The position numbers and the translations under genes are program-made. 64,000 nucleotides of DNA from NCBI GenBank assembly GCA_023473585.1, contig JAMCYU010000001.1, positions 66,507 through 130,506 on the forward strand, in the 5' to 3' direction. This stretch comes from Patescibacteria group bacterium. GTDB taxonomy: Bacteria > Patescibacteriota > Microgenomatia > JAMCYU01. Position 1 is the stretch's first letter; every line of letters begins with the position of its first letter. Positions 3,098-63,527 of the stretch are shown one piece after another. Under the pieces are notes generated by a model. That model had not been told where the DNA came from and did not search any database. It saw only the letters and a program-made list of their open reading frames with translations.

Positions 3098-3098
3098 T

Positions 3099-38424: not shown

Positions 38425-39516
38425 TTATTTTGTTTTAACTATTATATTACTAAACTTTTCTTTAACCAAATAAGTCAGGAATAAATAAAGGAAGGGCATT
38501 ATTAAAAGAAAATATCTGGGCCAAACGGGAATAAAAAATAAAAACACAAAATAAATCACTAACCAAATGACGATTAGAGAAAGGCTATCGCGCTTCCTTT
38601 TTAAAAGATGAGAGACCAAATACCAGCTGCCGGCGATAAATAAAATCGGCCAGGTAATTTGCCACTCAGAAATATTGACAACGCCATCCCACCAAGTAGG
38701 CCATCGATTTAAAATCATCATGGGAAAGACCATTCCCATTTCCCCTTTAGCCCCCACCGTATAAAAATTCAAAATCCATTTTTGAACTCCCAGAAATTCA
38801 CGAAAGCTATGGCCTAAGAAAAAATAACGGCCATAGGTTAACAAAAAAACGATTATGGCCAAAGGTAAACTTCGAAGAAAATTAATTAGATTCTTCCTTT
38901 TGCTCACAAAAAGATACAGGCCGCAGGTAGCTCCGACTAAAAGACCTGTGGAAACCGTATTTTTTGTTCCGGCCATTAACCCAAAACAAACGGCAAAGAG
39001 AAAAAATTTTTCCTTAAGAAGAAAATAAAAAGTCAGAATAAGAAACATTAAATAAAGCGTATCCAAGTAAGGAGCCCGAAGCTGTTTGTAAAAAAGCGGC
39101 TCGAAAGAAAAAAAAGTTACGGGCAAAAGACTCCAAAATTTATCTTTTAAAAAAAAGAGGTTCAGTTTGTAAAAGCAAAATAAGACTAAGATGCCGGTTA
39201 AAAGCGCAAAAATGTTTTGGTTTTGGAAAATAATAATGGACAAACCGATAAGATATTTCCCAAGCGGCGGCATTTCGGCATTTAAAATACTGGGGTCTTC
39301 TCCGTTAACATAAGCCCAGCCCGCATAAGCGTAAAGACCATCGTCACCGATCGATTCCTTTGACTGCGGATCAACCCATTGTGATTTTAGATAGCGATTT
39401 TGCCAATAAACCGGATCAAATTTCGTTAAGTATTCCTGCCGATATTCAAAAATCCGGAAAAAGAAATTAAAGATAAGAATAAAAAGCAAAATAAAAAGGC
39501 CCAGTTTCTGTTTCAT
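38425..39516 (-). CDS. Polytopic membrane protein; paralog of window-edge fragment 8-535
   Basis: Shares GVQKWI and EWQITWPILFI motifs with CDS 8-535. Confidence 0.35.
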   Translation of the reverse strand: MKQKLGLFILLFILIFNFFFRIFEYRQEYLTKFDPVYWQNRYLKSQWVDPQSKESIGDDGLYAYAGWAYVNGEDPSILNAEMPPLGKYLIGLSIIIFQNQNIFALLTGILVLFCFYKLNLFFLKDKFWSLLPVTFFSFEPLFYKQLRAPYLDTLYLMFLILTFYFLLKEKFFLFAVCFGLMAGTKNTVSTGLLVGATCGLYLFVSKRKNLINFLRSLPLAIIVFLLTYGRYFFLGHSFREFLGVQKWILNFYTVGAKGEMGMVFPMMILNRWPTWWDGVVNISEWQITWPILFIAGSWYLVSHLLKRKRDSLSLIVIWLVIYFVFLFFIPVWPRYFLLIMPFLYLFLTYLVKEKFSNIIVKTK

Positions 39517-43285: not shown

Positions 43286-43314
43286 TTGACATAAAATAAA
43301 TATCCCACTATGAT
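43286..43314 (+). promoter_or_regulatory. Candidate promoter of YerC/TrpR-like regulator gene (TTGACA-17-TATGAT)
   Basis: TTGACA 43286-43291, 17-nt spacer, TATGAT 43309-43314; repeat element 43324-43350 lies in the leader. Confidence 0.35.
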
Positions 43315-43368: not shown

Positions 43369-43815
43369 ATGAGTCAGGTTTCTAAAAGATTCATTTCTAA
43401 AGAAATCGAGGACAGGATGCTAGAGATTTTTTGGCAGTCACTGGCCTCTTGCTCGACAAAGGAAACCGTGGCTTCTTTCCTGGAAGATCTTTTAACTCCC
43501 ACCGAAAAAATTATGCTATCTAAAAGAGTCTCTATTGCTCTGCTTTTATTGAAAGGTTACGATTACAAATCTATTAATAATATCCTCAAAGTCAGTGCTC
43601 CGACTATTTGGACAGTCAGTCTTTGGCTAAAAACAAAAGGCAAGGGCTACCGCATGGTCTTAAAAAGGATAATTCAGAATGAAAAATGGGATAAATTATG
43701 GCAAAACGTAGAAAAACAGATTCAAGACATTCTGCCTCCTAGGCCAGGAACGAATTGGGCTGAAGTCAGAAAAAGACAATGGGAGAAACGCCGCCAGCAA
43801 CAAAAACCCTATTAA
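43369..43815 (+). CDS. YerC/YecD (TrpR-like) family DNA-binding protein with C-terminal basic extension
   Basis: LLTPTEKIMLSKRVSIALLLLKGYDYKSINNILKVSAPTIWTVSLWLK matches the LLTPxE...RxxIAxxLLxG...I...LxxSxATIxRxSxxLK YerC/TrpR-like signature. Confidence 0.45.
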   Translation: MSQVSKRFISKEIEDRMLEIFWQSLASCSTKETVASFLEDLLTPTEKIMLSKRVSIALLLLKGYDYKSINNILKVSAPTIWTVSLWLKTKGKGYRMVLKRIIQNEKWDKLWQNVEKQIQDILPPRPGTNWAEVRKRQWEKRRQQQKPY

Positions 43816-43994: not shown

Positions 43995-45500
43995 TTATTC
44001 GCCTTTGTAATGACCGAGTTTAACGACGCGGACGACGGAGACCTGCCATTCGCCTTCAATTTCAGCCCGGCCGAAACCGGCAATCTCCCAAAGAGAATGA
44101 CCCAGTGGCTGGCAGGAAGAAACTTCACAGATAACAAGAAGTTGACTCGTGACTGTTTTTCTTTGCGGGTCGACTTCCTGATTCTCGATGGTGACCGGCT
44201 TATTCCCCCAGATTTCGAAAAAATAACGATAGGCATGATCCGAATTCTGGCCCGTAATTAAGGCAAAATTAAAGGGTTGACCATTCGTTTTGTCCAGAAC
44301 AAAGCGGCTGATGGTTTTTGTCTGTAATAATTGACGATTAGGGGTAAACTTAAATGGCCTGCCTTCCCAATTAATCCAAGCTAAGATTCCGACAAAAAGA
44401 AGGGCAATTATTTTTACAGGCCGATATTTAAAGTGGAGAAAAAAAGAAGCTGTTTGCCCAACCAGTAAAAATGGCAGGGAAAACATAAAACCAAAATAAT
44501 AATCATAAATTGGTTTTTTATAAAATCCGAAAAGAAAAACACCGACTGTCAACCAAAGAAAAAGAAGAACTCTCGCTTTATTGTTCTTTTTAAGAAAGAG
44601 GTAAAAGAAGATCGGTAAAGTCACCGCCATAACGAAGTAAGTTAACCAAGAACCCGAATTGGGAAAATAAGAAACTAATCTTCCAAAGAGCCGAAAGAGA
44701 ACATCCCAACTAATAACCAAAAAATTTTGACCGGTAAACCCGGTTTCTCCGGAAGAGAAAATAAATTTAATAACGGTTTGCAGATTAGTAAAGCCATGAC
44801 GAAGTTCAAAGGCTAAAAAGGGTGAAAAACCCACCAAAAAACCCAAAATCGCCAGAAAATAATATTTTATTTTGGTAAAATTCCGACCATAGATTAAAAA
44901 ATAAATAAAGGCTACGGGGACGAGAAAAACAAAAAGGTAATGAAGCTGCAAACCAATGCCTAAAACAATCCCTAATAAAAATAAATAAGACCATTTTTGT
45001 TTTTCCACAATCAGCCAAAGAAGATAAATAAAGAGAGTCGAGAAAAACGGCACCAAGTTCGGATTCCACGAGGCGCGCGAATAGGCGATAACCAGGGGCG
45101 ATAAAGTAAAAAGAAGAGCCGCCAAAAGACCAGCCCAAAGATTAAAAAGGTCCTTCCCTACTTTATAGACTAAAAAAATCGTTAAGATGCCAAAGAGGGC
45201 CACCATAACGGCAGGCCCCACAGGATCAAGTTTAAAAAGCCACAAAAAGGGCAGCATAAAATAATAGTAAATCGGACCTAAGAAAAATCCTCCCACCGAA
45301 GCCGTAGGCCCCAAAAGCGTCAATTTATGATCAACGATCATCCTTTTAACGACCAAAACATCTCTGCCCTCATCGCCCAAAAAGGTTAGATAGTCGGCGA
45401 TTCGGTAAAGCCGAAGATAGGCCCCCAAGAGAAGAATGGCAAAAACTAATAACGGAAGAAGAAGTTTTTTAAAATTTATATTTCTTGTTCCACGTTCCAT
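43995..45500 (-). CDS. ArnT/PMT-like GT-C glycosyltransferase (polyprenyl-P-sugar dependent)
   Basis: YLRLYRIADYLTFLGDEGRDVLVVKRM...FFLGPIYYYFMLPF N-terminal loop with DE motif; 501 aa multi-TM. Confidence 0.5.
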   Translation of the reverse strand: MERGTRNINFKKLLLPLLVFAILLLGAYLRLYRIADYLTFLGDEGRDVLVVKRMIVDHKLTLLGPTASVGGFFLGPIYYYFMLPFLWLFKLDPVGPAVMVALFGILTIFLVYKVGKDLFNLWAGLLAALLFTLSPLVIAYSRASWNPNLVPFFSTLFIYLLWLIVEKQKWSYLFLLGIVLGIGLQLHYLFVFLVPVAFIYFLIYGRNFTKIKYYFLAILGFLVGFSPFLAFELRHGFTNLQTVIKFIFSSGETGFTGQNFLVISWDVLFRLFGRLVSYFPNSGSWLTYFVMAVTLPIFFYLFLKKNNKARVLLFLWLTVGVFLFGFYKKPIYDYYFGFMFSLPFLLVGQTASFFLHFKYRPVKIIALLFVGILAWINWEGRPFKFTPNRQLLQTKTISRFVLDKTNGQPFNFALITGQNSDHAYRYFFEIWGNKPVTIENQEVDPQRKTVTSQLLVICEVSSCQPLGHSLWEIAGFGRAEIEGEWQVSVVRVVKLGHYKGE

Positions 45501-45503
45501 GTT

Positions 45504-46631
45504 TTAATGATTGGTCTTTTTCCAAATGACTCGAGAATAAATAAACCAACTGTAGGGAACAACAAGAAAAATAACGGCTCCGGCCATAAAGATCATTCGA
45601 TATTGATCGCCGAAAAAATTAGTTCCCAAACCGACAACGATACCTTGAATAATGACGGCTCCTATCGAAGTAAAATTAAACTGAATAAATTTAGCAATGA
45701 GAGTTGTAATTTTACTTACTTTTTGATCATTAAAGGTCCAAAAATTATTAAGAGTAAAATTGGAGATAATGGCCATTTCTGCTCCCAGGGAAGCCGCCGG
45801 ACCGGGTCTTAAACCAAATTTGTAAAAAATTTCCAGCCCTAGGGCGTTAATGACAAAACCAATCGTCCCGACGATAAAAAATTTTAAAAAACCGCTTTCC
45901 CAAAGTTCTTTTGTCCTTGCCGTAATCAGATATCTTAAAAGATTCGTAATATATTCCATGGGAGTCAGTTTTGATCGCCCGTAATATCTTTCGGAAAAAG
46001 TAATGGGGAATTCGGCGATCTTTGCCCCGTTTTTAAGACTCTTGTGCAGGAAAGCAACTTGAAAAGTATAGCCGCTGACGTTTTGAAGTTCATTTTTGGC
46101 TTTTTCAAAAAAATTCTTCTTAATCGCCCGGAAACCGCTTGTCCACTCGTGTATCCAAAAAATACCCAAAAGAGTGCGCACGATTAAATTCCCAGCTCTG
46201 CTAAAAATCTTGCGATGAAGTCCCCATCTTTTGGGGATGGAACCACCCTTTACATAGCGACTGCCGACAACGAAATCGGCCCCTTCCTCGATTTTTTTTA
46301 AAAACTCGGGGATTTTTTTAGGATCGTGAGAAAGATCAGCGTCCATTTGGACAATAATGTCGGCTCCAAGTTTTTGGATCGCATAATCCATACCAATAAC
46401 CAAGGCTCTCCCCAACCCGACTTTTTCCTTATTTAAAAGTAAAAAAAGATTGTGATATTTATTTTTTAAATCTTTAATAACCGAAGCCGTTCCGTCGGGA
46501 GAAGAGTCGTCAACGACGAGAAGATCAAATTGATAAAAAGGTAATTTTTTAGCTACTTCTTGTATTTCCCTAATCAACTTCTCGATATTACCTTTTTCAT
46601 TATAAGTGGGAAGAAGAACAACGACTTTCAT
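45504..46631 (-). CDS. Polyprenyl-phosphate sugar synthase, GT2 catalytic domain fused to C-terminal GtrA-like TM domain (Ppm1-like)
   Basis: MKVVVLLPTYNEKGNIEKLI...DLLVVDDSSPDGT...QMDADLSHDP (DPM1 signature) plus about 4 C-terminal TM helices (GtrA-like). Confidence 0.65.
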   Translation of the reverse strand: MKVVVLLPTYNEKGNIEKLIREIQEVAKKLPFYQFDLLVVDDSSPDGTASVIKDLKNKYHNLFLLLNKEKVGLGRALVIGMDYAIQKLGADIIVQMDADLSHDPKKIPEFLKKIEEGADFVVGSRYVKGGSIPKRWGLHRKIFSRAGNLIVRTLLGIFWIHEWTSGFRAIKKNFFEKAKNELQNVSGYTFQVAFLHKSLKNGAKIAEFPITFSERYYGRSKLTPMEYITNLLRYLITARTKELWESGFLKFFIVGTIGFVINALGLEIFYKFGLRPGPAASLGAEMAIISNFTLNNFWTFNDQKVSKITTLIAKFIQFNFTSIGAVIIQGIVVGLGTNFFGDQYRMIFMAGAVIFLVVPYSWFIYSRVIWKKTNH

Positions 46632-47584
46632 AGTGATCGAAAATAGGCTATGGTTTGTTTTAATCCTTCTTCAAGACTGACTTTCGGCATCCAACCTAAA
46701 ATTTGTTTAATCCGCGTAATGTCCGGCTGACGACGGGTTGGGTCATCTTCGGGAAGATCGGTAAATTTAATTTCTGAAGACGATTCGGTTAATTGTTTAA
46801 TAAACTTGGCAAATTCCAGGATAGTGTGCTCTTCGGGATTCCCTAAATTAAAAACTTCACCCCTGGCTTTTTCGTTTTCCATAAGAATCAGAAAACCCGA
46901 AACTAAATCATCCACGTAACAGAAGCTTCGGGTTTGACTGCCGTCGCCGTAAACCGTAATCGGCATCCCCGAAAGCGCCTGAACCGTAAAGTTAGAAACA
47001 ACCCGGCCGTCGTCTTTGTCCATGCGCGGTCCATAGGTATTGAAAATTCTGACGATTCTGGCATCAAGGTCGTCTTTCCTTACATAAGCCATGACCATGG
47101 CTTCGCCAAATCTCTTGCCCTCATCGTAACAGGATCTCACCCCGATCGGATTAACATTCCCCCAATAAGATTCACGCTGCGGATGCTGCTGAGGATTGCC
47201 GTAAACTTCACTTGAGGAGGCATATAAAAATTTCGCTCCGTTGGCTTTGGCAATTTCCAAAAGATTAAAGGTTCCTAAAGAATTGGCTAAAAGTGTTTCC
47301 GCCGGATATTTTTGGTATTGACCGGGACTGGCCGGCGAAGCCAGATGGTAGATAAATTGAACGCCTGATATTAAAGATTGGGAAGTTTTGTCTAAGGGTT
47401 TGGTGACGTCGCCCTCGACCAGATGGAATAAGGGATTATTTATCATGGGTTCTACATTTTTCCGGTTGCCGGTTATAAAATTATCCAAACAAATGACCTC
47501 GAGATCTTGAGCAAGAAGAGTTTCGCAAAGATGAGAACCGATAAAACCAGCGCCGCCGGCGATTAAACATTTAACTTTTGACAT
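46628..47584 (-). CDS. UDP-glucuronate decarboxylase (UDP-xylose synthase)-like
   Basis: CLIAGGAGFIGSHL, NFITGNRKNV, YASSSEVYGNPQQHPQRESYWGNVNPIGVRSCYDEGKRFGEAMVMAY closely matches UXS signature block. Confidence 0.65.
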   Translation of the reverse strand: MSKVKCLIAGGAGFIGSHLCETLLAQDLEVICLDNFITGNRKNVEPMINNPLFHLVEGDVTKPLDKTSQSLISGVQFIYHLASPASPGQYQKYPAETLLANSLGTFNLLEIAKANGAKFLYASSSEVYGNPQQHPQRESYWGNVNPIGVRSCYDEGKRFGEAMVMAYVRKDDLDARIVRIFNTYGPRMDKDDGRVVSNFTVQALSGMPITVYGDGSQTRSFCYVDDLVSGFLILMENEKARGEVFNLGNPEEHTILEFAKFIKQLTESSSEIKFTDLPEDDPTRRQPDITRIKQILGWMPKVSLEEGLKQTIAYFRSL

Positions 47585-47594
47585 TTGTAATTTC

Positions 47595-48548
47595 TTAAAC
47601 CCTGGCCCGCCAATAATTCAGAAGATCTTCCATGGTTTTTGCAAACGGAATTTCCGGCTTCCAGCCTGTAGCCTGACGAAATTTACTGCAGTCTCCCAAA
47701 AGAATAGAAACATCTGACGGTCGCAGCCGGGTTTGATCCTCTTTGACTTTAACCTTAACCTTGCTCATCTTTAAAAGCATATTTAACATATCGCTGACCC
47801 TAACCGCTTTTTCCGAACAGATATTATAGACTTCTCCCGGGCTGCCCTTTTTAACCGCTAAAAGATAAGCCCTAACCATGTCCCGAACGTCAGTCCAGTC
47901 CCGTTGTGATTCTAAATTGCCGACTTCAATGACGGGTTCTTTTTTCCCTTTTTCAATTTCGGCAATTTGTTTGGCAAAATTACTGGTGACAAAAACCTCG
48001 CCTCTTCTTGGACCGGTATGGTTAAAACCTCTGGTTCTTATAATTTTTATACCGTAACTTTGAAAATATTGATAACCCAAATAATCCATAGCCACCTTAG
48101 AAACCGCATAAGGAGACTGCGGACGTAGCGGATTCTCTTCCTTGATGGGAATTTCGTCAGGATGCACCAATCCGTACTCTTCCGAGGAACAGGCGATTTG
48201 AATGACTGGACTGATTTCCGCCCTCCTTAACGCTTCAAACAAATGAACGCTGCCGACAACATTCATTTCCATTGTCGTCGCCGGTGAAGCCCAGGATGTC
48301 TGCACAAACGACTGTGCCGCCAAGTGGAAAACATAATCCGGTTTAACGTTTATAAAAATGGAGTAAAGGCTGTGTGAATCTAAAATATCGGCATCGTAAA
48401 GCTTCAGCTTGTATTTGATGTCGTCAATATTATCGGTTTTACTCCGCGGTCTGGTGGTACCAAAAACCTCATAACCCTCCTTAAGAAGAAGTTCTGCCAA
48501 ATGACTGCCGGCAAAACCTGTAATCCCAGTAATTAAAGCTTTTTTCAT
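47595..48548 (-). CDS. GDP-mannose 4,6-dehydratase family (Gmd/Rmd-like)
   Basis: ALITGITGFAGSHLAELLLKEGYEVFG and FNHTGPRRGEVFVTSNFAKQIAEIEKG match Gmd/Rmd conserved blocks; 317 aa is closer to Rmd length. Confidence 0.5.
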   Translation of the reverse strand: MKKALITGITGFAGSHLAELLLKEGYEVFGTTRPRSKTDNIDDIKYKLKLYDADILDSHSLYSIFINVKPDYVFHLAAQSFVQTSWASPATTMEMNVVGSVHLFEALRRAEISPVIQIACSSEEYGLVHPDEIPIKEENPLRPQSPYAVSKVAMDYLGYQYFQSYGIKIIRTRGFNHTGPRRGEVFVTSNFAKQIAEIEKGKKEPVIEVGNLESQRDWTDVRDMVRAYLLAVKKGSPGEVYNICSEKAVRVSDMLNMLLKMSKVKVKVKEDQTRLRPSDVSILLGDCSKFRQATGWKPEIPFAKTMEDLLNYWRARV

Positions 48549-49837
48549 CTTCCGACTCCTTTATAAATAAAACCAAGTTTTATAATTTTTTCCGGATCGT
48601 AAATATTCCGACCGTCAACAATAATCGGCTGATTCATTAATTTTTTGATTTTAACCAAATCCAATTGTTTAAACTCATTCCATTCTGTCATAATCAAAAG
48701 AGCATCCGCACCTTTAACGGTTTCTTCGGGATTTTTACAGTATACCACATTTTTAAGAATTTCCTGGGCCTTAGAAATAGCAACCGGATCAAAGGCGCGA
48801 ATTTTGACTCCCTTACTTTGAAGAGCCTCGATAACCTTAATTGAGGGCGCTTCCCGCATATCATCGGTATTAGGTTTAAAGGCAAGACCTAAAACCGCCA
48901 CGGTTTTCCCTTTGACAGGATCAAGAAGTTTTATGACCTTATTAACAAAGTTCTCGGCCGCCTGCCGGTTAATTTCTTCAACTTCTGCAAAAAGGTTAAC
49001 TTTTATTTGCGCTTTTTTAAACATGGCGTTTAAAGCTTTAACATCCTTAGGAAAACAACTCCCCCCATAGCCGACTCCGGGATTAAGAAAACTACGGCCC
49101 AGACGTTTATCCAAACCCACTCCGTCTAAAACCTGAAGGACGTCAGCCCCGACTTCTTCGCATAAAAAGGCGATGGCGTTGGCAAAAGAAATCTTGGTTG
49201 CCAAAAGCGAGTTAGAGGCGTATTTAATCATTTCCGCTGAAGGAATATTCGTTAAGACGAAATGTCCGTTGATGGGTTTATGAAGTTCCATAAGAATTTT
49301 TTGGGCTGATAACGAATCCGTTCCGATCACAATTCGGTCGGGTTGCAAAGTGTCAGCAAGGGCGGTCCCTTCACGCAAAAATTCGGGGACAAAAGCAACT
49401 TCAAGATCGGCCCCTTTGGGCTTAACCTTCTTGATAATTTCGGCAACTCTTTTGGTCGTCCCGACCGGCACCGTGCTTTTAACCACAATCACTTTTTGGC
49501 CTTTACCCAAATTTTTCCCGATCGTTTCGGCAGACGCATAAACCTGGGAAAGATCAGCCTCGCCGCTTTGAAGAGAGGGTGTACCAACGCAAATAAAAAT
49601 AATGTCCGATCCGGAAATGGTTTCTTCGTAAGAAAGAGTGAACCTAAGTCTTTGGGCAGTGGCGTTTTTCCTAACCACCTCTTCAAGTCCGGGCTCAAAA
49701 AAGGGAATCATTCCCTTTTTAAGCTTTTCAATTTTTTCTTTGGTTCTTCCGACACACCAGACATCGTTGCCTAAATCCGCAAAAACCGCGGCGGTGACTA
49801 AACCAACGTAACCGTTGCCAATAACCGTTATTTTCAT
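48545..49837 (-). CDS. ugd: UDP-glucose 6-dehydrogenase
   Basis: MKITVIGNGYVGLVTAAVFADLGNDV N-terminal NAD fold; GGSCFPKDVKAL catalytic Cys motif; 430 aa. Confidence 0.75.
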   Translation of the reverse strand: MKITVIGNGYVGLVTAAVFADLGNDVWCVGRTKEKIEKLKKGMIPFFEPGLEEVVRKNATAQRLRFTLSYEETISGSDIIFICVGTPSLQSGEADLSQVYASAETIGKNLGKGQKVIVVKSTVPVGTTKRVAEIIKKVKPKGADLEVAFVPEFLREGTALADTLQPDRIVIGTDSLSAQKILMELHKPINGHFVLTNIPSAEMIKYASNSLLATKISFANAIAFLCEEVGADVLQVLDGVGLDKRLGRSFLNPGVGYGGSCFPKDVKALNAMFKKAQIKVNLFAEVEEINRQAAENFVNKVIKLLDPVKGKTVAVLGLAFKPNTDDMREAPSIKVIEALQSKGVKIRAFDPVAISKAQEILKNVVYCKNPEETVKGADALLIMTEWNEFKQLDLVKIKKLMNQPIIVDGRNIYDPEKIIKLGFIYKGVGR

Positions 49838-50715
49838 CGCCTTTGCCCTTTCAAAACCATTAAACCCTGCTTAAGGGTTAACATCTCAACTTTTAATTTT
49901 TTCAGTTTATCATTTTTTAATCTTAAAGAAAAGGGGCGAGGGGCTTTATTTTGGTAGTAAGTAATTCTGTCTATTTCTTTAATTAAAGATTTATCCAAAG
50001 AAAAGGTTTCGGCAAGAAGTTGGGCAACCTCAAAAGGCGTGTGGAAACTGCTGCCAACGACATGGAAAATACCTTCGGCCTCCTTAGCGATTAGGCAATC
50101 AATGGCGATGGCGATATCGTCAATAAAAGTCGGTGTCATGAACTGATCCGAAACCATTTTCAGTTCTTCGTGATTTTTGAGTTTTTCCAAAAGTCCCCTG
50201 ACGAGGTCTTTTTTGGGAGCGAAATTAGCTCTGTAAGGAAAGGCTAACCGGCAAATTAAATAAGGTAAGCCGGAACTTTGAACGATTTTTTCTCCCTCAT
50301 ATTTGGTGACGGCATACCAGTTAATCGGATTGGGCATATCTTCTTCTTGGTAAAAATCCTTATTCCCGTCAAAAACGAAATCGGTTGAGATATAAATAAA
50401 TTTCTTTTTTGTTTTTTGAGCCGCTTCAAGGAGATTCCTCGTCCCCTCAACATTAATAAGCCACGCGCTTCCTTGGTTTTTAAGTTCCCTGTCTTTTTCG
50501 CAGGCATCAACGTCGGTTTTAGCGGCAAAATGCAGGATTATTTTTGCTTTAGAAGCAAAAACGGCGTTTTTAACTTGTTCTTTATTGGTGATGTCAATAC
50601 CGGTTTCATAGCTTAAGTTTTCAAATTCGTATTTCTTTTCCAGAAGTTCGACGATTCTTGAGCCGACCAATCCTGTTAAACCCGTCCCTAAAATAGAAGT
50701 TTTATCTTTCGCCAT
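49834..50715 (-). CDS. rmlD: dTDP-4-dehydrorhamnose reductase
   Basis: ILGTGLTGLVGSRI, HFAAKTDVDACE, YISTDFVFDG, NWYAVTKYEGE motifs; start set at internal ATG 50715 (MAKDK) instead of track start 50907, which would overlap rmlB by 200 nt. Confidence 0.6.
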   Translation of the reverse strand: MAKDKTSILGTGLTGLVGSRIVELLEKKYEFENLSYETGIDITNKEQVKNAVFASKAKIILHFAAKTDVDACEKDRELKNQGSAWLINVEGTRNLLEAAQKTKKKFIYISTDFVFDGNKDFYQEEDMPNPINWYAVTKYEGEKIVQSSGLPYLICRLAFPYRANFAPKKDLVRGLLEKLKNHEELKMVSDQFMTPTFIDDIAIAIDCLIAKEAEGIFHVVGSSFHTPFEVAQLLAETFSLDKSLIKEIDRITYYQNKAPRPFSLRLKNDKLKKLKVEMLTLKQGLMVLKGQRR

Positions 50716-51715
50716 ATTGCTTTTGGTAATACTTTTGATACTCTCCTGATTTAACTTTCTTCCACCAGTCTTCGTTGTTTTGATACCAAGCCACGGTTTT
50801 TTCAAGCCAACTGTCAAAAGCAAATTGCGGTTGCCAACCGAGCTCGTTTTTGATTTTTGACCAATCCAAAGCGTAGCGACGATCATGACCTGGCCTGTCC
50901 TTAACAAATTCTAAAAAGCTTTCGTCTTTGCCTAAGATCTTTAAAATTTTCTTAATGACACTTAGATTATTAATATCTTCTGTTAAACCGCCAACGCAAT
51001 AGGTCTCCCCGAGTTCTCCTTTTTCCAAAACCAAATCAATGGCCCGACAATGATCTTCAACATAAAGCCAATCGCGAACGTACAAACCGTCGCCGTAAAC
51101 CGGAACTTTTTTACCCTCTAAAAGATTCGTAATGGTTAAAGGAATAAATTTTTCCGGAAACTGGAAAGGACCGAAGTTATTAGAACAATTCGTGATTGTG
51201 ACCGGCAGATTAAAGGAATGAAAGTATGCTCTGACCAGATGGTCAGACGCGGCTTTGGTTGCGGCGTAAGGACTTCTGGGATTATAGAGAGTTTTTTCGT
51301 TAAATTTATGAGGATCGTCAAGCTTTAAAGAGCCGAAAACCTCATCGGTTGAGACATGATGAAACCTTTTAACGTTATTTTGCAGGGCATTTTCCAAAAG
51401 AATCTGCGTGCCCAAAACATTGGTTTTAACAAAAACCGCAGGCGTCAAAAGCGACCGGTCCACATGAGATTCGGCGGCAAAATGAACGACAATGTCGGTA
51501 CCCTTTATAACCCTGCTCACCATTTCTTGGTCGCTTATATCGCCTTTAATAAATTGGTAATTGGGGTTATCTTTGATAGATTCTAGATTAGCTAAATTCC
51601 CGGCGTAAGTTAATTTATCAAAATTGATGATTTGATCCTGGGGATGATTTTTGAGCCAATATAAAATAAAATTGGCACCAATAAAACCAGCTCCGCCGGT
51701 CACTAAGATTTTCAT
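50702..51715 (-). CDS. rfbB: dTDP-glucose 4,6-dehydratase
   Basis: MKILVTGGAGFIGANFILYWLKNHPQDQIINFDKLTYAGNLANLE..., YAATKAASDHL, classic RmlB blocks. Confidence 0.8.
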   Translation of the reverse strand: MKILVTGGAGFIGANFILYWLKNHPQDQIINFDKLTYAGNLANLESIKDNPNYQFIKGDISDQEMVSRVIKGTDIVVHFAAESHVDRSLLTPAVFVKTNVLGTQILLENALQNNVKRFHHVSTDEVFGSLKLDDPHKFNEKTLYNPRSPYAATKAASDHLVRAYFHSFNLPVTITNCSNNFGPFQFPEKFIPLTITNLLEGKKVPVYGDGLYVRDWLYVEDHCRAIDLVLEKGELGETYCVGGLTEDINNLSVIKKILKILGKDESFLEFVKDRPGHDRRYALDWSKIKNELGWQPQFAFDSWLEKTVAWYQNNEDWWKKVKSGEYQKYYQKQYGER

Positions 51716-51722
51716 AAATTTT

Positions 51723-52445
51723 TTATTTTTCGACTTTTTCCGCCCAATAACGGCTGGCTAAATAGAGAGTTTTAAAAGTCCCGGCATCAGACCAAAAGCC
51801 GTCAAGCTTAGCCCAACGTAATTTTCCTTCACGAAGATAACAATTATTGACATCCGTTATCTCCAGTTCCCCCCTGTCTGAAGGTTTAATACTTTTAATA
51901 TGAGAAAAAACTTTATTGTCGTAAAGATAAAGACCGGTCACCGCAAAATTACTTTGCGGTTTTTTGGGTTTTTCCTCAATCGCCATAATTTTTTTAGAAT
52001 CTTCTTTGTCAAAAACCGGCACGCCAAAACGCTCGGGATCCGGAACCTCTTTTAGGAAAACCATCGCCCCGTCTTCAAAAGACTTAACCTGCTCGGAAAT
52101 ATCAACATCGGTCGTATTGTCGCCTAAAATGGCCGCGATTGACTCCCCGTCAGCAAAATCCTCAGCCAAAGCCAAAGCCTGAGCGATCCCTCCTTCTTTT
52201 TCCTGATAGGCAAATTCTAAATGCTTAACTCCTAATTGTTTACCGTTTCTTAAAACCTGAATAAAATGACCGGCGTGAGGTCCGCCGACAACCACCAAAA
52301 TTTCCGAGATATCGGCCCGCAATAAAGTTTCCAGAGGATAAAAAACCATGGGTTTATTGTAAATAGGTAAAAGATGCTTGTTCGTGGCGTAAGTTAAAGG
52401 ATAAAGCCTGGTTCCCAAGCCTCCGGCTAAAACAACCCCTTTCAT
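51723..52445 (-). CDS. rmlA: Glucose-1-phosphate thymidylyltransferase-like sugar nucleotidyltransferase (short form)
   Basis: MKGVVLAGGLGTRLYPLTYATNKHLLPIYNKPMVFYPLETL; start at internal ATG 52445 with AGGAGG about 8 nt upstream; the track's 36-aa N-terminal extension rejected. Confidence 0.65.
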   Translation of the reverse strand: MKGVVLAGGLGTRLYPLTYATNKHLLPIYNKPMVFYPLETLLRADISEILVVVGGPHAGHFIQVLRNGKQLGVKHLEFAYQEKEGGIAQALALAEDFADGESIAAILGDNTTDVDISEQVKSFEDGAMVFLKEVPDPERFGVPVFDKEDSKKIMAIEEKPKKPQSNFAVTGLYLYDNKVFSHIKSIKPSDRGELEITDVNNCYLREGKLRWAKLDGFWSDAGTFKTLYLASRYWAEKVEK

Positions 52446-52696
52446 AGTAAAATCCCTCCTAATAAAATGATACTTAAGAGCCCAATAAGCGTATATTCTA
52501 TCACAATTTTTAAATTTAGGTTCTTTTCCCAAAGATGATGAAAAATTCCCCAAAAAATGTAAGTTAGGGCCATAAGGAGGGAAATTTGAAATTTAACGAT
52601 TTTATCGGGATGATAAATAAAACAAGTCACGCCTAAACCTATTAATAAAACTAAAATCAGATAATGCCAAAAATGAGTTTTAATTTCTTCCATCAT
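52442..52696 (-). CDS. Small membrane protein (2-3 TM), function unknown
   Basis: Hydrophobic 85-aa ORF translationally coupled (4-nt overlaps) between CAP-domain gene and rmlA; start chosen at MMEEIK. Confidence 0.3.
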   Translation of the reverse strand: MMEEIKTHFWHYLILVLLIGLGVTCFIYHPDKIVKFQISLLMALTYIFWGIFHHLWEKNLNLKIVIEYTLIGLLSIILLGGILL

Positions 52697-53664
52697 ATAA
52701 TCACTCCTTGACTCGTCACCCAAAGAACCCCCAAAAGAGCTCCCAGGAAAATCAAATGAGCCAGGTTATGACCGCTGACTCTCACAATCCGTCGACGCCA
52801 GATAAGAATACCGTCCGAAGCTAAAATGAGTAATAACCCACCGGTTAAGAGACTGGCTAAATTTTTAGAAGTGGCAAAAAAATTAACTAAGGGATGACGC
52901 GAAACGCCGGCGACCCTAAGAGCCGAAAGGGCCATCGGCGGAAGATTCTGGCTGATAATAACGGGTCTTTCTGTGGGAGAGGGTGAGGGTTCCAGGGTGG
53001 CCCCAGGTGAAGCGACGGCTTCAGACGGCGAGGTTGGTAACGGTGTTTGGGTTTGGGCGGCCCGGGGCGAAATCGTGACGGGTTTTTGGACCAAAGTGTT
53101 CCGTTGTCTGGCGCCAAACATCTGCACAACCAAAGTTGTCTCCTCTCCTCCTAACCGATTATTAACCACGGCAAAACCGATTTCCTGATATTCTCTTTTT
53201 AAGATATTTTCCTTATGTGAGGGCGAACCCATCCAAGCCGACACAACCGATTCGGAATCGTTAAAATCACGGGCCAGATTTTCACCGGCGTAAAGATATT
53301 GGTAACCGGCCTGACTTATAAAAACCCACGGCGTTGTCCCGTCCGGAGCGTTATGAGCCCAATAATTTTTACTGAACATATCATTGGCTTTAGCCAAAGC
53401 GGCGTCTGAGAGTTGACCGTTTAAAGAAACCGGCTGCAAACCTGCCTCCGCCCTTCTAAGATTGGTTAAATTTAAAAGTTTTTCGACATTAATGTCGGTC
53501 GCGTAACCTAAAATATCGGGCCGTGTCAGTTTCAAAACCCTGAAGGAAAGCTGCAGTAATAAAAAAAGCGTTATGTAAAAAATTAAAGCGGAAAAATGAA
53601 GCGTTTTTGGACGAAAATTATTACTTTCGTGGGGCAAAAAATAATGAGCAGCCAAAGTTTTCAT
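52693..53664 (-). CDS. CAP/SCP/PR-1 (YkwD-like) domain surface protein with Pro/Ser/Thr linker and C-terminal TM anchor
   Basis: N-terminal signal-anchor, CAP block (GENLARDF...SAWMGSPSHKENILKREYQEIGFAVV), TPLPTSPSEAVASPGATLEPSPSPT linker, C-terminal hydrophobic helices. Confidence 0.6.
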   Translation of the reverse strand: MKTLAAHYFLPHESNNFRPKTLHFSALIFYITLFLLLQLSFRVLKLTRPDILGYATDINVEKLLNLTNLRRAEAGLQPVSLNGQLSDAALAKANDMFSKNYWAHNAPDGTTPWVFISQAGYQYLYAGENLARDFNDSESVVSAWMGSPSHKENILKREYQEIGFAVVNNRLGGEETTLVVQMFGARQRNTLVQKPVTISPRAAQTQTPLPTSPSEAVASPGATLEPSPSPTERPVIISQNLPPMALSALRVAGVSRHPLVNFFATSKNLASLLTGGLLLILASDGILIWRRRIVRVSGHNLAHLIFLGALLGVLWVTSQGVII

Positions 53665-53688: not shown

Positions 53689-53739
53689 ATGAGTGAAACA
53701 AGAAAAGCATCTTCGATTAATTCGTTTCACTCATTATAT
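53689..53739 (-). promoter_or_regulatory. Promoter/leader element upstream of CAP gene: 26-nt motif (53714-53739, TATAAT on minus strand) plus 11-bp inverted repeat ATGAGTGAAAC/GTTTCACTCAT forming a leader hairpin
   Basis: 26-nt exact repeat of 4639-4664; inverted repeat arms 53689-53699 and 53723-53733. Confidence 0.4.
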
Positions 53740-53772
53740 GGCCAAAAGTTGTCTTTGGTCAAGCAAAAGAAG

Positions 53773-55174: not shown

Positions 55175-55966
55175 TTAGTGTCTGGAAATGACTTCAACCA
55201 AATCAATTCTTTCTTGCTGAAGATAATCATTTTTAACCCATGAAAGGTCTAATTCAACTTTCTTAACGACCTCTTTTCCGGGTTCTGACTGGTAGATGAC
55301 TTCACCAAGCGGCGAAACTACCAGGGAGGGTTGTGTTTGAGGCACCTCGGCATTATTAACACTACAAACAAAATATTGATTTTCAAAAGCTCTGGATATT
55401 ACCAAATGACTTTTGAGAGAATCTCCGGGTTTAATGGCATTATTAAGATGAAAAACTACTTGTGCGTCTTGTTTTTTTAAATATTTCCACTGCTCGGGAA
55501 AAACAAGTTCTCTGCACATTTGTATACCGAATCTGACGCCATTTTCTTCATAAACTTCTAATTTATTCCCTTGCTTAAAATGTTTTCTGTCTAAAGTAGC
55601 CAGATTATTCTTAAAATAATATTTTGTTCCTGATTTGCTAACAATAACCGTGGCATTATACCAATCATTAGTGAATTTATAAGCAGTCCCAAAAAGACAG
55701 AGACAATTTTTTTCTTTAACAACAGCTTCTATTTTTAAAATCCCCTCTTTTATCTCTTTAAAATTAAGCTGTCCCGGGTAATTATCGTCTTCTGGATAGT
55801 AACCAGACAACATGCCTTCAGGAAAAACTATCCATTCATTTTTTTCTGAACCATAAATGATTTTTAAAATTTTATTAAGATTATGGGCTATTTTTCTTGT
55901 TACTATAAGCTGAGCAATTTTAACTATCATTAACTGAATTATAGCAAAAGGCTTTATCTTTCCCAA
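55175..55966 (-). CDS. Carbon-nitrogen hydrolase (nitrilase superfamily) protein
   Basis: E-K-C triad context: WIVFPEGMLSGY (Glu), LDRKHF (Lys), GIQMCRELVFPE (Cys); 9-nt gap after adhesin gene. Confidence 0.5.
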   Translation of the reverse strand: MGKIKPFAIIQLMIVKIAQLIVTRKIAHNLNKILKIIYGSEKNEWIVFPEGMLSGYYPEDDNYPGQLNFKEIKEGILKIEAVVKEKNCLCLFGTAYKFTNDWYNATVIVSKSGTKYYFKNNLATLDRKHFKQGNKLEVYEENGVRFGIQMCRELVFPEQWKYLKKQDAQVVFHLNNAIKPGDSLKSHLVISRAFENQYFVCSVNNAEVPQTQPSLVVSPLGEVIYQSEPGKEVVKKVELDLSWVKNDYLQQERIDLVEVISRH

Positions 55967-55975
55967 AGAAGAGCA

Positions 55976-58900
55976 TTACGAAGAGCGGCGGGAGAAAAAG
56001 TAGAAAGCTAAAGCTAAAAGTCCTAATCCGCCCAGAACCCAAATTAACTTACTGCCTCCGCCTAAAATACCGTTCGTGGCGCCGGTATTCGTCCCCGACG
56101 ATGGCTGTGTCCCCGCTTGAGGCTCTGCTCCGGCCGCTGGACTGCCTTCGGTTCCTTGTCCGAGCACTTCTCCGCCGGCCACACCACCGGCCACCGGTAA
56201 GGGCTGGGTCTCTCCGGCTGATTGGGTTCCCGGCGAGGGTGAAACTTCAACATAAGTTATTGAGCCGCCGTCGCCGACTAAATCTGAAGCATTCCCGGCT
56301 TTATCAATGGCGCGAAGAGCATAATAGGTTTCTCCACTCCAGGGAATACTATTATCAAGGTAATTTATGTCTTCGTTCGGCACTCCGCCTCGTTCTCCAA
56401 TTTTCGTTCCGTTGTCCGCTGTAAAGTCACGCTTGTCAGAACGGTAGATAAAAACTTTATAAAAATCGCTACTGTCCGGATTTTTCCAGAATATTTTAAA
56501 GGCGTTGGCCCCGGCTCTGTCTTTACGGTAATTAGTGGGTGTTTTGGGATTGTTCCAATCAACCGTTGTTGAAGTTTCGCTTGATGCTGATTCTCCTCCG
56601 CCGGTCGCCGCCACTTTAAAATAATATTTTCCCTGCTCATTGACGATCGCGGTGGTTGTTTCGATTGAACCGGTTTCGCCGTTTAATAAACTCCCGAAAG
56701 CCAGTTCCGGACCACCCTCTTTATGATAATAAAATTGGGCCTGAATCGGCTCGCCCTTAGTTTGCAGCGCCGTATAGGAAAGTTTAAAAACCGGGGTGTT
56801 TTTATATTCGGGTAAAGTGGTGATTTGCACGGTCAAATTAGCGGCTTGAGCCGGTTTCGCGTAAGTTAAACCGAAAAGCAACGGTGCGACCAAAATCATC
56901 ATCTTGATTAATTTTCTTAATTTACCCAGGTTTTTCAAAGCCAAGCCCAGGAAAATCATTAAAATAGCTAAGATCAACCAGCCTGTTTCCGCTCCGGTCG
57001 CGGCGCCTAAAACTTTTCCTGTTTCAGTTGAGGCTCCCAAAACTTGCTGGATTGTTCCGCCAATACCGGCGGAAAGACTGACTCCGGGTATTAAGTTAAC
57101 CCAAGACCAAGCCGGATCAGTATAAGTTTTGTAATTATCCGCAGCATTTAAAACCCGATTATTACCCCAGGCCAGAGCGACATTAGGATATTTGCCTTCC
57201 TGTAAACTGCTGTCTGTTTTGGCTTGATAAGTGATCGTCACAATCGCATCCGGATTAAGATTTCCCAAACTCCAAACAATATTTTGACCGGTAACTGTCG
57301 GTTCAGAAGCGCCAGTCGTACTGCTTGCCACATAACCAAACCCAATCGGTAAAGTATCCCGAACCGAAACATCTCTAGCGATAATTTTTGAAGTATTGGT
57401 TACGGTTAAAGTATAAGTTACGGTTCCTCCCGGACCCATTGAACCAAGAATATTATTAATTTTACTTAAGGTCAAAGTTATTGGCTGAAGTTCGTTACCA
57501 AAATTCGTGCAAAAAGGCTGTCGAACGAGATTAGTTACGAATTCGCCACCACGTGGCTGACCGTTACATTCCTCACCACCGTAAGAAGACCCGGAATTAA
57601 TCGTCAAATCGTAGTAATTCGGATCAACCGGCCAAGTTTGATCCCAACCCGGTTGAGCGGTTTCGGTCAGACGATAATTACCAGCTCTTAATCCGGTAAA
57701 TTCAAAGTAACCATTATCATTTGTCTGCACACAATTACCATTATCCTGCTCGGTAAACCTAAAGGTCGGTTCTTCACTCGGGCTTAAACAAATTTCCCAA
57801 CCACTTAAGGCCGGTTCTCCTTCATCCCAAAAACCATTACCATTATAATCATCCCACTTCCAGCCACTAACTTCTCCTAACTTGAAGTTGCCAAAATTCA
57901 TATCAGTTGTTTCTTGACCGGGATTAACGACAACCGTCTGACAATCGGAATCTGTCGGTTGAGTTCTTTGCCAACCTTTTTGAGATTCTTCACAAACCTG
58001 ATAAGTTCCGGAAATAACGTTTTCAAAGGTGTAAGTTCCGCTTTCCGTCGCTGTTGTCGTCGTTCTCAAAATCGTGCCTTCGATATCCTTTAATTGAATT
58101 GTCCATTCCGATAACCCTCCTTCATTTTCTTCTCTAGAACCATTAACATTAATATCCTCGTATTTCAAACCGGAAATCGAACCGTAATGAAGATTGCCGA
58201 AATTTTTACCGGTGTTATCTCTGTCTCCGGAATGATTAATAATCGCTTTCCGGCATCTTGGAGCTTCATCGGTTGCTCGCGACTGATTGGCAAAACCCTC
58301 TTTTCCTCGAGGATCAGTCTGAATCCACCCTGATGGTAAAACTTCACAAAGGTAATATGTTCCCAAAGACAAACCATCAGCGCGATACTGACCGGTGATT
58401 CCGGTGTGTCCAGTTATTAATTCATCAACTTTATTCCAACCCTCTTCTGCCGCTTTGTAAACTCTGATTGTCCATTGATCTAAATAAGGCTCTCCCGCGT
58501 TATATTTACTATTATCATTTAAATCTTCATATTTTTTGCCTTGGATCATTCCTAATCTGAAATTACCAAACTTAATGATTTTTTCCTCTCCCAAGGTCAA
58601 ATCAACGTTCTGGCAAAGATCGGTCGTGTTCGTCCAACCCTCCGTTAAGTTTTCTTCTCTAACTGAATATTCTCCCGGAACCAAATTGGGAAAAACCGCA
58701 TTCCCGTTTTGGTCGGTGTCCTCCGTTCCTTCCCCAATCATTTGACCTCCACAGTCGAAACCCTCGTAAACTCCCATTTCCCAACCAGCTAAACCACGAT
58801 CATTACCGTTTTCCAAACCATCCTGATTATTATCTTCAAATTTATGAGCCGTAATTTGACCTAACTTGGTATTGATAAAAGTACAGGTGCCTCCGTCTTC

Positions 58901-62875: not shown

Positions 62876-62903
62876 AAAAAATCTTCTGGGCAGAATTACG
62901 GTG

Positions 62904-62932
62904 ATTATATAATTAAAAATACGGGTTGTCAA
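62904..62932 (-). promoter_or_regulatory. Consensus sigma70-type promoter for the adhesin gene (TTGACA-17-TATAAT)
   Basis: Minus strand TTGACA at 62932-62927, exactly 17-nt spacer, TATAAT at 62909-62904, 28 nt to ATG 62875 with AGAAGA SD-like element. Confidence 0.5.
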
Positions 62933-62939
62933 GACTGCC

Positions 62940-63527
62940 TCATTTTTTGGCCAAAACCAAAAGACGATAAAGAGTGGTTCCGGCTGGATAACAGGTTTGC
63001 AAAGTTAAAGTTTCTCCCTGAAGATTTTGTAATGTTTCGGCGACTTTATCGGGACTGACAATTTTTTTATCGGTTACCCTATAGGCGTATTTAAGAGAAT
63101 TATAGTAAACGATAATCTCGTCATTTTTTTCCAGTTTGGAGATGAGATAAAAAACGGCGTTATAACGACTGACGTTTAAGGGCGTATCGCTTGAATGGCC
63201 GAAAATAAAAACATTACCCGTCTCATTTGGCAGGATGCTTCCCTTAGCGTGAGCCACGCCTTTGGTTAAAATCGGTAAATATTCCTGAGGGTTGTTCGCA
63301 TCAACGTTGCTAAAAACTTTCACATTGAGTTCCAGCTTAGGGATAACCAAACCGAATTCTTCGGAAACCGGGGTTATTGTTTTGGGAATGGTTAATTCTT
63401 TGCCTCTTTTATTTTCCAGGTTTCGGTAGCGGATTTCCTCATTGACAATCGGCCAATAAACTAAAGCCAAAATAAGAAGACCTCCGCCAAGCAAAATCAG
63501 CCAGACATAATTTAAAACCTTAGTCAT
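62940..63527 (-). CDS. Sortase family transpeptidase (membrane-anchored)
   Basis: N-terminal TM anchor; IFGHS (His), LTLQTCYP (TLxTC catalytic Cys), LYRLLV (Arg) in canonical order and spacing. Confidence 0.7.
   Translation of the reverse strand: MTKVLNYVWLILLGGGLLILALVYWPIVNEEIRYRNLENKRGKELTIPKTITPVSEEFGLVIPKLELNVKVFSNVDANNPQEYLPILTKGVAHAKGSILPNETGNVFIFGHSSDTPLNVSRYNAVFYLISKLEKNDEIIVYYNSLKYAYRVTDKKIVSPDKVAETLQNLQGETLTLQTCYPAGTTLYRLLVLAKK

Follow-up and report, generated by a model that had tools for sequence, protein, structure and literature searches.

The 64,000-nucleotide stretch of Patescibacteria DNA considered here (from contig JAMCYU010000001.1; the whole stretch is referred to below as the window) has a G+C content of about 38% and consists, over nearly its entire length, of a single long run of minus-strand genes. 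Positions 43995–53664 of the minus strand are occupied by an operon that an initial annotation had described as a self-contained protein O-glycosylation module led by a CAP-domain surface protein. Pfam, NCBIfam and solved-structure searches agree with the identities predicted there for nine genes, and reading of the sequence adds a tenth, for an 84-aa protein with three transmembrane (TM) segments, which lies between the CAP gene and rmlA and had been overlooked. In the order of transcription, the operon encodes the CAP protein, the 84-aa membrane protein, RmlA, RfbB, RmlD, Ugd, an Rmd-like short-chain dehydrogenase/reductase (SDR), UXS, a GT2-GtrA fusion protein and a GT-C glycosyltransferase. 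The genes are as tightly coupled as had been claimed. At the CAP/84-aa and 84-aa/rmlA junctions the ATG of one gene overlaps the stop codon of the gene before it, both times as ATGA, and the remaining junctions are overlaps of 4 or 14 nt or gaps of 3–10 nt. The likely starts of rmlA (52445) and of rmlD (an ATG at 50715) are not those of the longest open reading frames (ORFs). The best promoter-like site on the minus strand, TTGACC-18-TATAAT at 53733–53762, lies 70–100 nt upstream of the CAP start; it is a sigma-70-like candidate by consensus match only (11 of 12 positions), and a start of the operon at the CAP gene is consistent with the differing genes found upstream of CAP in relatives. An Rfam scan of the window gave no match.

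With each species represented by a single genome, at least 518 species were seen to encode a relative of the GT-C protein, and the best 80 loci were examined by calling ORFs and assigning them with phmmer against the window proteins. The arrangement goes far beyond what chance would give, since about 80 species-level genomes repeat it. The genes follow one another as CAP, small TM protein, RmlA, either an RmlC-like cupin, an FdtA-like cupin, a NUDIX protein or none of these, RfbB, RmlD, Ugd, the Rmd-type SDR, an optional GMD, an optional UXS, GT2-GtrA and GT-C. The proposed pairing of the last two is borne out, the GT2-GtrA gene lying directly upstream of the GT-C gene in 80 of 81 loci with a median junction of −4 nt. 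Where the full 10 kb upstream was available, in 52 loci, the CAP gene is present in 46; of the six exceptions, one looks degraded, and in five the gene would lie beyond the fetched 10 kb. A search begun from CAP homologues recovered the same operon. The genes upstream of CAP vary (S8 peptidase, TsaD or a divergent NiFe hydrogenase), and the conserved block therefore starts at CAP. On the other side, about 31 loci (type A) continue directly from GT-C into GT2, MptA/B-like, PMT_2 and PTPS_related genes; in Levybacteria, GT-C is followed by genes for DUF4446, DUF3048, SecD, SecF, YqeY, the CCA-adding enzyme and RecJ. The segment from CAP to GT-C is a conserved unit, because it stands alone in Levybacteria and has a glycosyltransferase-rich island downstream elsewhere. 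The word module is thereby partly vindicated, and the CAP gene is indeed co-conserved and translationally coupled with glycosylation genes. The block is not self-contained: the products of the Rml, Ugd, UXS and Rmd enzymes need Leloir transferases that are not encoded in it, and the window and at least 31 relatives run into a GT-C-rich island. Searches of a paper library turned up no description of this operon, and those for Patescibacteria, Gottesmanbacteria or the candidate phyla radiation (CPR) with GT-C or glycosylation returned nothing relevant.

The CAP protein (323 aa, 52693–53664, minus strand) matches the CAP/SCP family PF00188 with 70.7 bits and the YkwD model TIGR02909 with 107 bits. 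From its N-terminus it comprises a cytoplasmic motif, PHxxNNxRxKxLH, a first TM helix, the extracytoplasmic CAP domain (residues 60–186), a linker, a second TM helix, a loop with the motif RRxIVRxxGHNxAH and a third TM helix. The C-terminal anchor assigned to it earlier is correct in so far as the C-terminus is a membrane part, but the protein is held by an N-terminal TM helix and a C-terminal two-helix hairpin rather than by a single anchor. In the AF2 model, pLDDT exceeds 90 in the CAP domain and falls below 50 in the linker. The top Foldseek matches of the domain are the bacterial SCP domains 4ifa and 4d53; the model superposes on 4ifa with 1.4 Å over 126 columns and has the α-β-α sandwich of the CAP/SCP/PR-1 superfamily. 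In all of 41 orthologues, H104, E128 and H150 of the canonical cavity are unchanged, which points to binding or catalysis at this site.

The linker (residues ~190–255) is a Pro/Ser/Thr/Ala segment predicted to be disordered, and the Pro/Ser/Thr-rich stretch described earlier is real (22 of 40 residues at 195–234). Its proposed role as an acceptor of sugars is not supported by comparison with relatives. In 55 CAP orthologues, the linkers are 23–93 residues long and consist chiefly of Ala, Pro and Val, and their Ser plus Thr content has a median of 18% and a range of 4–31%, against 13% in the CAP domain. A conserved Ser/Thr-rich acceptor segment was therefore rejected, since the Ser/Thr content is not kept.

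The 84-aa protein (52442–52696, minus strand), identified by sequence reading, has the motif Y..WG..HH....dL..kiViEY, and its orthologues occupy the same position in 63 of 81 loci. The ATGA overlaps that join it to CAP and rmlA recur among relatives, the median junctions being −4 and +3.5 nt. Family searches gave only a sub-threshold match to the C-terminal end of DUF5656 (14 bits), and no literature on it was found. His-rich motifs are conserved in both membrane proteins in the orthologues from loci L002 to L085: on the cytoplasmic side of CAP these are the segment before TM1 and the loop between TM2 and TM3, and in the small protein they are WG..HH and ViEY. They suggest a shared membrane-embedded site, possibly for metal or protons. 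Because its cavity residues and its membrane-near motifs are invariant, the CAP protein looks like a working component of the system rather than a passive substrate.

The GT2-GtrA protein (375 aa, 45504–46631, minus strand) is predicted to be a polyprenyl-phosphate hexose synthase resembling the type-III dolichyl-phosphate mannose synthase (DPMS) of archaea. Its GT2 catalytic domain (PF00535, 97.6 bits) is followed by a four-helix GtrA/DPMS TM domain (PF04138, 55.5 bits, residues 250–370) that aligns with the TM domain of the Pyrococcus furiosus enzyme, PfDPMS. The match to PfDPMS (5mlz) extends across residues 1–360 with 156 bits; the second-best solved relative, ArnC, gives 59 bits. The protein had been called Ppm1-like, and its catalytic residues are of the DPMS/Ppm1 kind, but over residues 1–360 the fusion has the architecture of the archaeal type-III enzyme and not that of actinobacterial Ppm1. 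In PfDPMS, D39, G68 and L69 contact the guanine, Y10 and E12 are ribose/loop residues, D89 and D91 bind the metal and diphosphate, D89 and H94 contact mannose O2/O3, R117, R131 and S135 hold the lipid phosphate, and R202/K208 belong to the A-loop (Gandini et al. 2017, PMC5526996). All of these are kept in the GT2-GtrA protein, including the PTYNE (8–12) and DAD-L-x-H motifs, the Arg/Ser lipid-phosphate triad and the A-loop Arg/Lys. In 70 orthologues, the contact residues are near-invariant, and PTYNE and DAD (97–99) are invariant or nearly so. Just three positions differ: Ser replaces Q93 (21 orthologues have Gln), Tyr replaces F177 and Thr replaces K178. The host also differs, being a CPR bacterium, in which the lipid is presumably of the undecaprenyl type rather than dolichyl. 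A 2026 paper (PMC12992685) puts forward that PfDPMS may flip its product by means of its TM domain.

Because the residues that contact guanine, mannose and lipid phosphate are conserved, the donor is inferred to be a GDP-hexose, with mannose as the default; GDP-6-deoxy-D-mannose is possible, because an Rmd-type gene is a conserved neighbour and, in some relatives, GMD genes are adjacent as well. Mannose or 6-deoxymannose is thus more likely to be carried than xylose or L-rhamnose. The initial annotation had preferred deoxyhexose and pentose donors to mannose, and this claim fares poorly, since no more than 37 of 81 loci have UXS, the pair is orthologous throughout, and the GT2 domain keeps the guanine, mannose O2/O3 and lipid-phosphate contacts. 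Xylose in particular, to which the gene order ugd-uxs-GT2-GT-C might point, was rejected as the transferred sugar: over half the orthologous loci have no UXS, and the GT2 domain is of the DPMS kind.

The GT-C protein (501 aa, 43995–45500, minus strand) matches PMT_2 (PF13231) with 65.8 bits. It has a multi-helix membrane domain and a conserved soluble α/β C-terminal domain (residues 390–501) in which C458 and C463 are invariant. The AF2 model (pLDDT 88.8, pTM 0.90) has a GT-C_A fold. The active-site loop that the initial annotation proposed to look for in a predicted structure is present: D43-E44 lies in the first outside loop, just past TM1, and is invariant in 44 sequences. Since a first-loop Asp-Glu is common to other GT-C_A families, it is not diagnostic of protein O-mannosyltransferases (PMTs). 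The PMT domain PF02366 is matched with 23.4 bits against a cut-off of 22.7, over residues 94–203 only. The C-terminal PMT_4TMC module is a feature of bacterial and eukaryotic PMTs; Pfam detects none here at E up to 0.01, and the soluble α/β domain stands in its place. Against all solved structures, neither the single sequence (E up to 1) nor a profile built from 44 sequences (E up to 10) gave a match, and sequence thus failed to place the protein in a family. Foldseek places ArnT first (TM-scores 0.66/0.61, 12% identity), but the fold is generic, ALG12, AglB, Pmt4 and ArnT being about equally close and PMTs not preferred. As modelled, the fold would be that of a GT-C_A enzyme with a lipid-linked donor outside the membrane, and it is silent on the acceptor. 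A homologue search returned 2731 matches, of which the best 120 are 54–100% identical; where a source is named, it is Patescibacteria, Gottesmanbacteria or Microgenomates, and some are annotated as 'ArnT-like'.

The remaining six genes of the operon encode enzymes that make activated sugars, namely a dTDP-6-deoxyhexose (RmlA/B/D), UDP-glucuronate (Ugd), UDP-xylose (UXS) and a GDP-6-deoxyhexose-type product (the Rmd-like SDR). RmlA (51723–52445, 240 aa; all six lie on the minus strand) is a short-form glucose-1-phosphate thymidylyltransferase (PF00483, 181 bits; TIGR01207, 239 bits, under the equivalog cut-off) whose closest solved relative is Bacillus anthracis RmlA (3hl3, 241 bits). RfbB/RmlB (50702–51715, 337 aa), a dTDP-glucose 4,6-dehydratase, passes the TIGR01181 cut-off of 365 with 485 bits. 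RmlD (49834–50715, 293 aa from the ATG at 50715) belongs to the dTDP-4-dehydrorhamnose reductase family (PF04321, 190 bits); it scores 187 bits with TIGR01214, under the cut-off of 224, and is closest to the solved RmlD 3sc6. The UDP-glucose 6-dehydrogenase Ugd (48545–49837, 430 aa) carries all three UDPG_MGDP_dh domains (TuaD model, 528 bits; TIGR03026, 468 bits). The Rmd-like SDR (47595–48548, 317 aa) falls in the GDP-6-deoxy-4-keto-hexose reductase/dehydratase family. Its top solved match is Rmd of A. thermoaerophilus, a GDP-6-deoxy-D-lyxo-4-hexulose reductase (2pk3, 298 bits), with GDP-heptose 4,6-dehydratase and GMDs next, and it is 47% identical to the Rmd copy and 39% identical to the GMD of Levybacteria. 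UXS (46628–47584, 318 aa), a UDP-glucuronate decarboxylase/UDP-xylose synthase, matches human UXS1 (2b69/4gll) with 364 bits (E 5e-108).

The SDR genes between ugd and GT2 differ among relatives. The Rmd-like SDR, present in 72 of 81 loci, is the sole one kept in nearly all. In 31 loci only this window-type SDR is found; a further 31 have Rmd, a true GMD (PF16363, 441 bits) and UXS; in the window, as in L004 and L085, which are closest to it, the Rmd-like SDR is accompanied by UXS. As the 31 loci with only the Rmd-like SDR keep the pair, UXS is dispensable for an otherwise orthologous GT2/GT-C pair. The slot between rmlA and rfbB is also variable. Among 36 loci with an intervening gene there, 19 have a NUDIX hydrolase, possibly a Gmm-like GDP-sugar hydrolase, 12 an RmlC-like epimerase and 4 an FdtA-like cupin (examples lie at 4116–4592 in L010, 4324–4743 in L002 and 3024–3566 in L004), and the 6-deoxyhexose produced may therefore vary between lineages. 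In the window the slot is an empty 7-nt gap (51716–51722), and tblastn with the relatives' proteins found no rmlC, cupin or NUDIX homologue anywhere in the 64 kb.

After GT-C, the minus strand carries 37 kb of uninterrupted envelope-glycan genes (6463–43171), and the operon is therefore, in this genome, the head of a very large envelope-glycan island. The island encodes a DrrAB-like ABC-2 pair, about 11 GT2 and 2 GT4 glycosyltransferases, 2 Wzx flippases and at least nine GT-C-type proteins (four PMT_2, two YfhO, two PTPS_related, one MptA/B-like and one PIG-V-like). Several of its GT2 proteins resemble the short polyprenyl-phosphate-sugar synthases PgfS, AglJ and PpgS. The short GT2 genes adjoin GT-C genes in what look like repeated synthase/transferase pairs, and the density of GT-C genes is unusual. 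Three further minus-strand genes, at 24703–26655, 18186–19754 and 38425–39516, encode proteins of 650, 522 and 363 aa with 13, 8 and 5 predicted TM segments and no Pfam or NCBIfam match; they may be additional GT-C, polymerase or ligase-like proteins, and the 363-aa one is syntenic in L001 and L004. The ABC-2 pair adjoins the operon here and lies within about 7 kb of it in several Levybacteria loci. Its assignment as a typed polysaccharide exporter was not borne out, the only match being a generic DrrAB/NodI-like one. A small YerC/TrpR-like regulator gene (43369–43815, plus strand) is wedged between GT-C and the ABC pair and has its own near-consensus promoter-like site (TTGACA-17-TATGAT, 43286–43314). 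Because it is missing at this position in L004 and in L085 (the CAP proteins of L085 and the window share 93% identity), it is a recent insertion that splits the island.

The reading that best accommodates these observations, although with a little less than an even chance of being right, is that the operon heads a conserved system of cell-envelope glycosylation, shared by the Microgenomates (Gottesman-, Levy-, Roizman- and Woesebacteria), with a wall glycopolymer or lipoglycan as acceptor. Mechanistically, it would be a lipid-linked monosaccharide system of the GtrAB/GT-C type or of the Ppm1/Pmt type. On the cytoplasmic face, GT2-GtrA would transfer a hexose from a GDP-sugar to polyprenyl phosphate, as the archaeal type-III DPMS does; GDP-mannose would be the most likely donor, and GDP-6-deoxy-D-mannose from the adjacent Rmd-type enzyme a possible one. 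The GtrA-like four-helix domain would hold the lipid product and might also flip it. On the outer face, GT-C would use its Asp43-Glu44 loop to move the single sugar to a conserved extracytoplasmic acceptor, for which the best guess would be a wall glycopolymer or lipoglycan primer that is itself conserved, by analogy with the GacI/GacL, CsbB/YfhO, GtrABC and Ppm1/MptA-B systems. The remaining sugar nucleotides would be unusable by the pair and would feed Leloir transferases elsewhere, here in the adjoining island. The CAP and small membrane proteins would be conserved membrane partners with a presenting, sensing or anchoring role, rather than CAP being the glycosylated product.

Several lines of evidence favour a glycopolymer. 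In the window, in L001, L004 and L085 and in the 31 type-A loci, GT-C is directly followed by GT2, MptA/B-like, PMT_2 and PTPS_related genes; the rml genes are in the same transcript; and further GT2/GT-C pairs, Wzx flippases and an ABC-2 pair are contiguous with the block in many genomes. The CAP linker does not conserve its Ser/Thr content, and the cavity residues of the CAP domain are invariant. Characterised bacterial GT2 and GT-C pairs mostly decorate polymers or lipids. Like GtrA/GtrB/GtrC, CsbB/GtcA/YfhO, GacI/GacJ/GacK/GacL and lactococcal Csd, the operon combines a GT2 enzyme that loads polyprenyl phosphate, a GtrA-type element and a GT-C acting outside, all three encoded together. 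The streptococcal and lactococcal systems lie near rml genes and an ABC exporter for rhamnose-rich wall polysaccharide, a layout that resembles the window. The operon departs from this group in that synthase and GtrA-like element form one protein, the GT2 domain resembles DPMS rather than GtrB/GacI, and GT-C, instead of varying with serotype, is highly conserved throughout a class-level lineage.

Some observations weigh against this reading. The ABC pair is generically DrrAB-like and not specifically Wzt/TagH-like. The sugar carried is deduced from conserved residues only, and genes for GMD and for mannose-1-phosphate guanylyltransferase are both absent from the window. The Levybacteria operon stands alone by SecDF and RecJ with no polymer-assembly genes nearby. 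In addition, the identity of GT-C across the examined loci (median 54%, minimum 51%) is unusually high for a glycan-decorating GT-C, even if the figure is somewhat biased upward by the choice of loci as best GT-C matches; it exceeds that of GT2-GtrA, RmlA, RmlD and CAP from the same genomes, and the island GT-Cs are 34–48% identical. Conservation of this degree is in keeping with a housekeeping enzyme whose acceptor, a protein for instance, does not vary. Something on the cell surface is decorated, and the sequence cannot tell whether it is a protein; a wall glycopolymer is slightly favoured.

Protein O-glycosylation of the Ppm1/Pmt type, in which GT-C would move the lipid-linked sugar to Ser/Thr of disordered extracytoplasmic segments with CAP and other proteins with Pro/Thr linkers, such as an adhesin, as acceptors, is a serious alternative, although on balance a doubtful one. 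As in the actinobacterial system, a polyprenyl-phosphate-mannose-synthase-like GT2 of the DPMS/Ppm1 kind is paired with a GT39/83-like GT-C that has a first-loop Asp-Glu, and Pro/Thr-rich disordered candidate acceptors are at hand: 22 of 40 residues are Pro/Ser/Thr in the CAP linker of the window, and 25 of 40 in the PT-rich region (residues 64–180) of a 2318-aa SdrD_B/SpaA/DUF11 adhesin. One lipid-sugar synthase could feed several GT-Cs, as in Corynebacterineae, since the island contains MptA/B-like and PIG-V-like proteins. CAP is co-conserved and coupled in essentially every observable locus, whatever lies upstream, and its linker, extracytoplasmic, disordered and held to the membrane by TM helices on both sides, would be readily accessible to a membrane GT-C. 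The conservation of GT-C, equal to that of housekeeping enzymes, and the stand-alone block of Levybacteria point the same way. A precedent from outside the actinobacteria is GT39 Cbes_1864 of C. bescii, which is required for glycosylation of the Pro/Thr linkers of secreted proteins and is encoded near a substrate gene (PMC6151902); by its description it is set apart by a locus without a CAP protein or a sugar-nucleotide block and by a carbohydrate-binding-like domain in its N-terminal loop.

These points have to be set against others. The synthase has a GtrA/DPMS TM domain and no Lnt-like partner domain, and GT-C is a PMT_2 protein with a marginal PMT score, no PMT_4TMC and its own Cys-containing C-terminal domain; a sequence search found no solved PMT, and fold searches showed no preference for PMTs. 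The Ser/Thr content of the linker falls as low as 4% among the CAP orthologues, which have mainly Ala, Pro and Val there, and the invariant cavity and TM motifs indicate an activity of CAP itself. A CAP protein heads the operon, rml/ugd/rmd genes are part of it, and in many genomes it continues into a polymer island rich in GT-C genes. The adhesin, which the initial annotation had offered as a second acceptor downstream, lies upstream of CAP in the direction of transcription and by synteny is not a conserved neighbour; the adhesin, sortase, S8 peptidase and CN-hydrolase genes are lineage-specific insertions, and the first three are missing from L002 and L084. Altogether, the operon, the pairing and the co-conserved CAP protein of the earlier interpretation hold, and its deoxyhexose and pentose donors, its Ppm1-type fusion, its Pro/Ser/Thr acceptor and its self-contained character are not supported. 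Protein O-glycosylation with deoxyhexose or pentose thus appears unproven and partly contradicted.

A bolder version, which seems improbable, is that the operon specifies a new type of lineage-wide protein O-glycosylation in Microgenomates, in which a DPMS-like enzyme would load polyprenyl phosphate with mannose, or with D-rhamnose from the adjacent Rmd/GMD enzymes, and a GT-C family without sequence kinship to any solved enzyme would pass the sugar to surface proteins, in a membrane complex with a dedicated CAP protein and its 84-aa partner. If true, this would be the first defined role for bacterial CAP domains, in acceptor presentation or lipid-carrier handling.

It is also quite improbable that the CAP and small TM proteins have no functional tie to the glycosylation genes and that the block is a co-regulated operon for envelope precursor supply, its order simply passed on in a lineage that rearranges slowly. 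In its favour, the genomes of CPR bacteria are small and syntenic, the users of the sugar nucleotides clearly lie outside the block, and CAP is linked to GT-C here by gene order. However, synteny breaks exactly at the CAP start, with three kinds of upstream neighbour, and the internal genes vary (NUDIX, RmlC, FdtA-like cupin or none; UXS and GMD come and go), yet CAP and the small TM protein stay, joined to each other and to rmlA by the recurrent ATGA overlaps.

Least probable is an Arn-like pathway, in which Ugd and UXS would make UDP-xylose, the GT2 enzyme polyprenyl-phosphate-xylose, and an ArnT-like GT-C would put the pentose on a membrane lipid or lipoglycan: the gene order of the window resembles the ugd/arnA/arnC/arnT logic, ArnT is the best Foldseek match and shares the layout of a membrane and a C-terminal soluble domain, ArnC is the second-best solved relative of GT2, and relatives are annotated 'ArnT-like' at source, but GT-C has 12% identity and no sequence-level match to ArnT, the GT2 domain is nearer to DPMS than to ArnC and keeps the guanine and mannose contacts, UXS is missing from 44 of the 81 loci that keep the orthologous pair and is of the human UXS1 type (364 bits) rather than the ArnA type (~92 bits), Pfam and NCBIfam searches found no aminotransferase, formyltransferase or deformylase and thus no equivalent of ArnB, of the ArnA formyltransferase or of ArnD, and Patescibacteria are monoderm and are not known to have lipid A.

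Among characterised loci, the S-layer glycan (slg) clusters of Aneurinibacillus and Geobacillus share rml genes, Rmd (the SDR's best solved relative belongs to such a system), the FdtA-like cupin of some relatives and an ABC-2 pair, but Pfam finds no WsaB/Wzy_C-type O-oligosaccharyltransferase in the window, where transfer would instead be by GT-C with lipid-monophosphate sugars. The operon differs from known systems in its bacterial type-III-DPMS-like synthase, in a GT-C family with no solved relative detectable by sequence and with its own C-terminal domain, in the obligatory head of CAP and the 84-aa protein, in the packaging of three to four sugar-nucleotide pathways and in its class-level conservation.

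The outer parts of the window contain other surface-related genes. Upstream of the operon, a sortase gene and then that of the 2318-aa adhesin occupy 55976–63527 (minus strand). The adhesin ends in a hydrophobic segment and an RRSS tail with no LPXTG-like motif, and this CPR sortase may recognize a non-canonical signal. A gene for a soluble CN-hydrolase of the nitrilase family (55175–55966, minus strand) lies between those for the adhesin and the S8 peptidase and is missing there in the close relative L085. Beyond the island, a plus-strand gene (4681–6462) encodes a 593-aa protein with about eight N-terminal TM segments and a C-terminal TPR array; its architecture recalls TMTC-type or O-antigen-ligase-TPR proteins, and its membrane part has no family match. 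At the left edge of the window (2240–4598, minus strand, and 525–2280, plus strand) are genes for a B12-binding radical SAM enzyme, a CapD/PseB-like dehydratase (Polysacc_synt_2), an SDR epimerase and a GT2 protein, which hint at further modified-sugar chemistry by the island.

To our knowledge, almost nothing has been established experimentally about the cell envelope of Microgenomates or of other uncultivated CPR bacteria, and we know of no established function for bacterial CAP/SCP proteins. CPR bacteria depend on surface contacts with their hosts. The operon is among the most conserved envelope loci of its lineage, found in at least 518 species genomes with a GT-C at least 51% identical in the examined loci, and it ties a CAP protein, by gene order, to a defined biochemical module. 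It provides a compact three- or four-gene handle on both the CPR envelope and the bacterial CAP proteins. With a protein as acceptor, Pmt-like O-glycosylation would extend to the CPR; with a wall polymer, the operon would define a conserved step in the decoration of the CPR cell wall.

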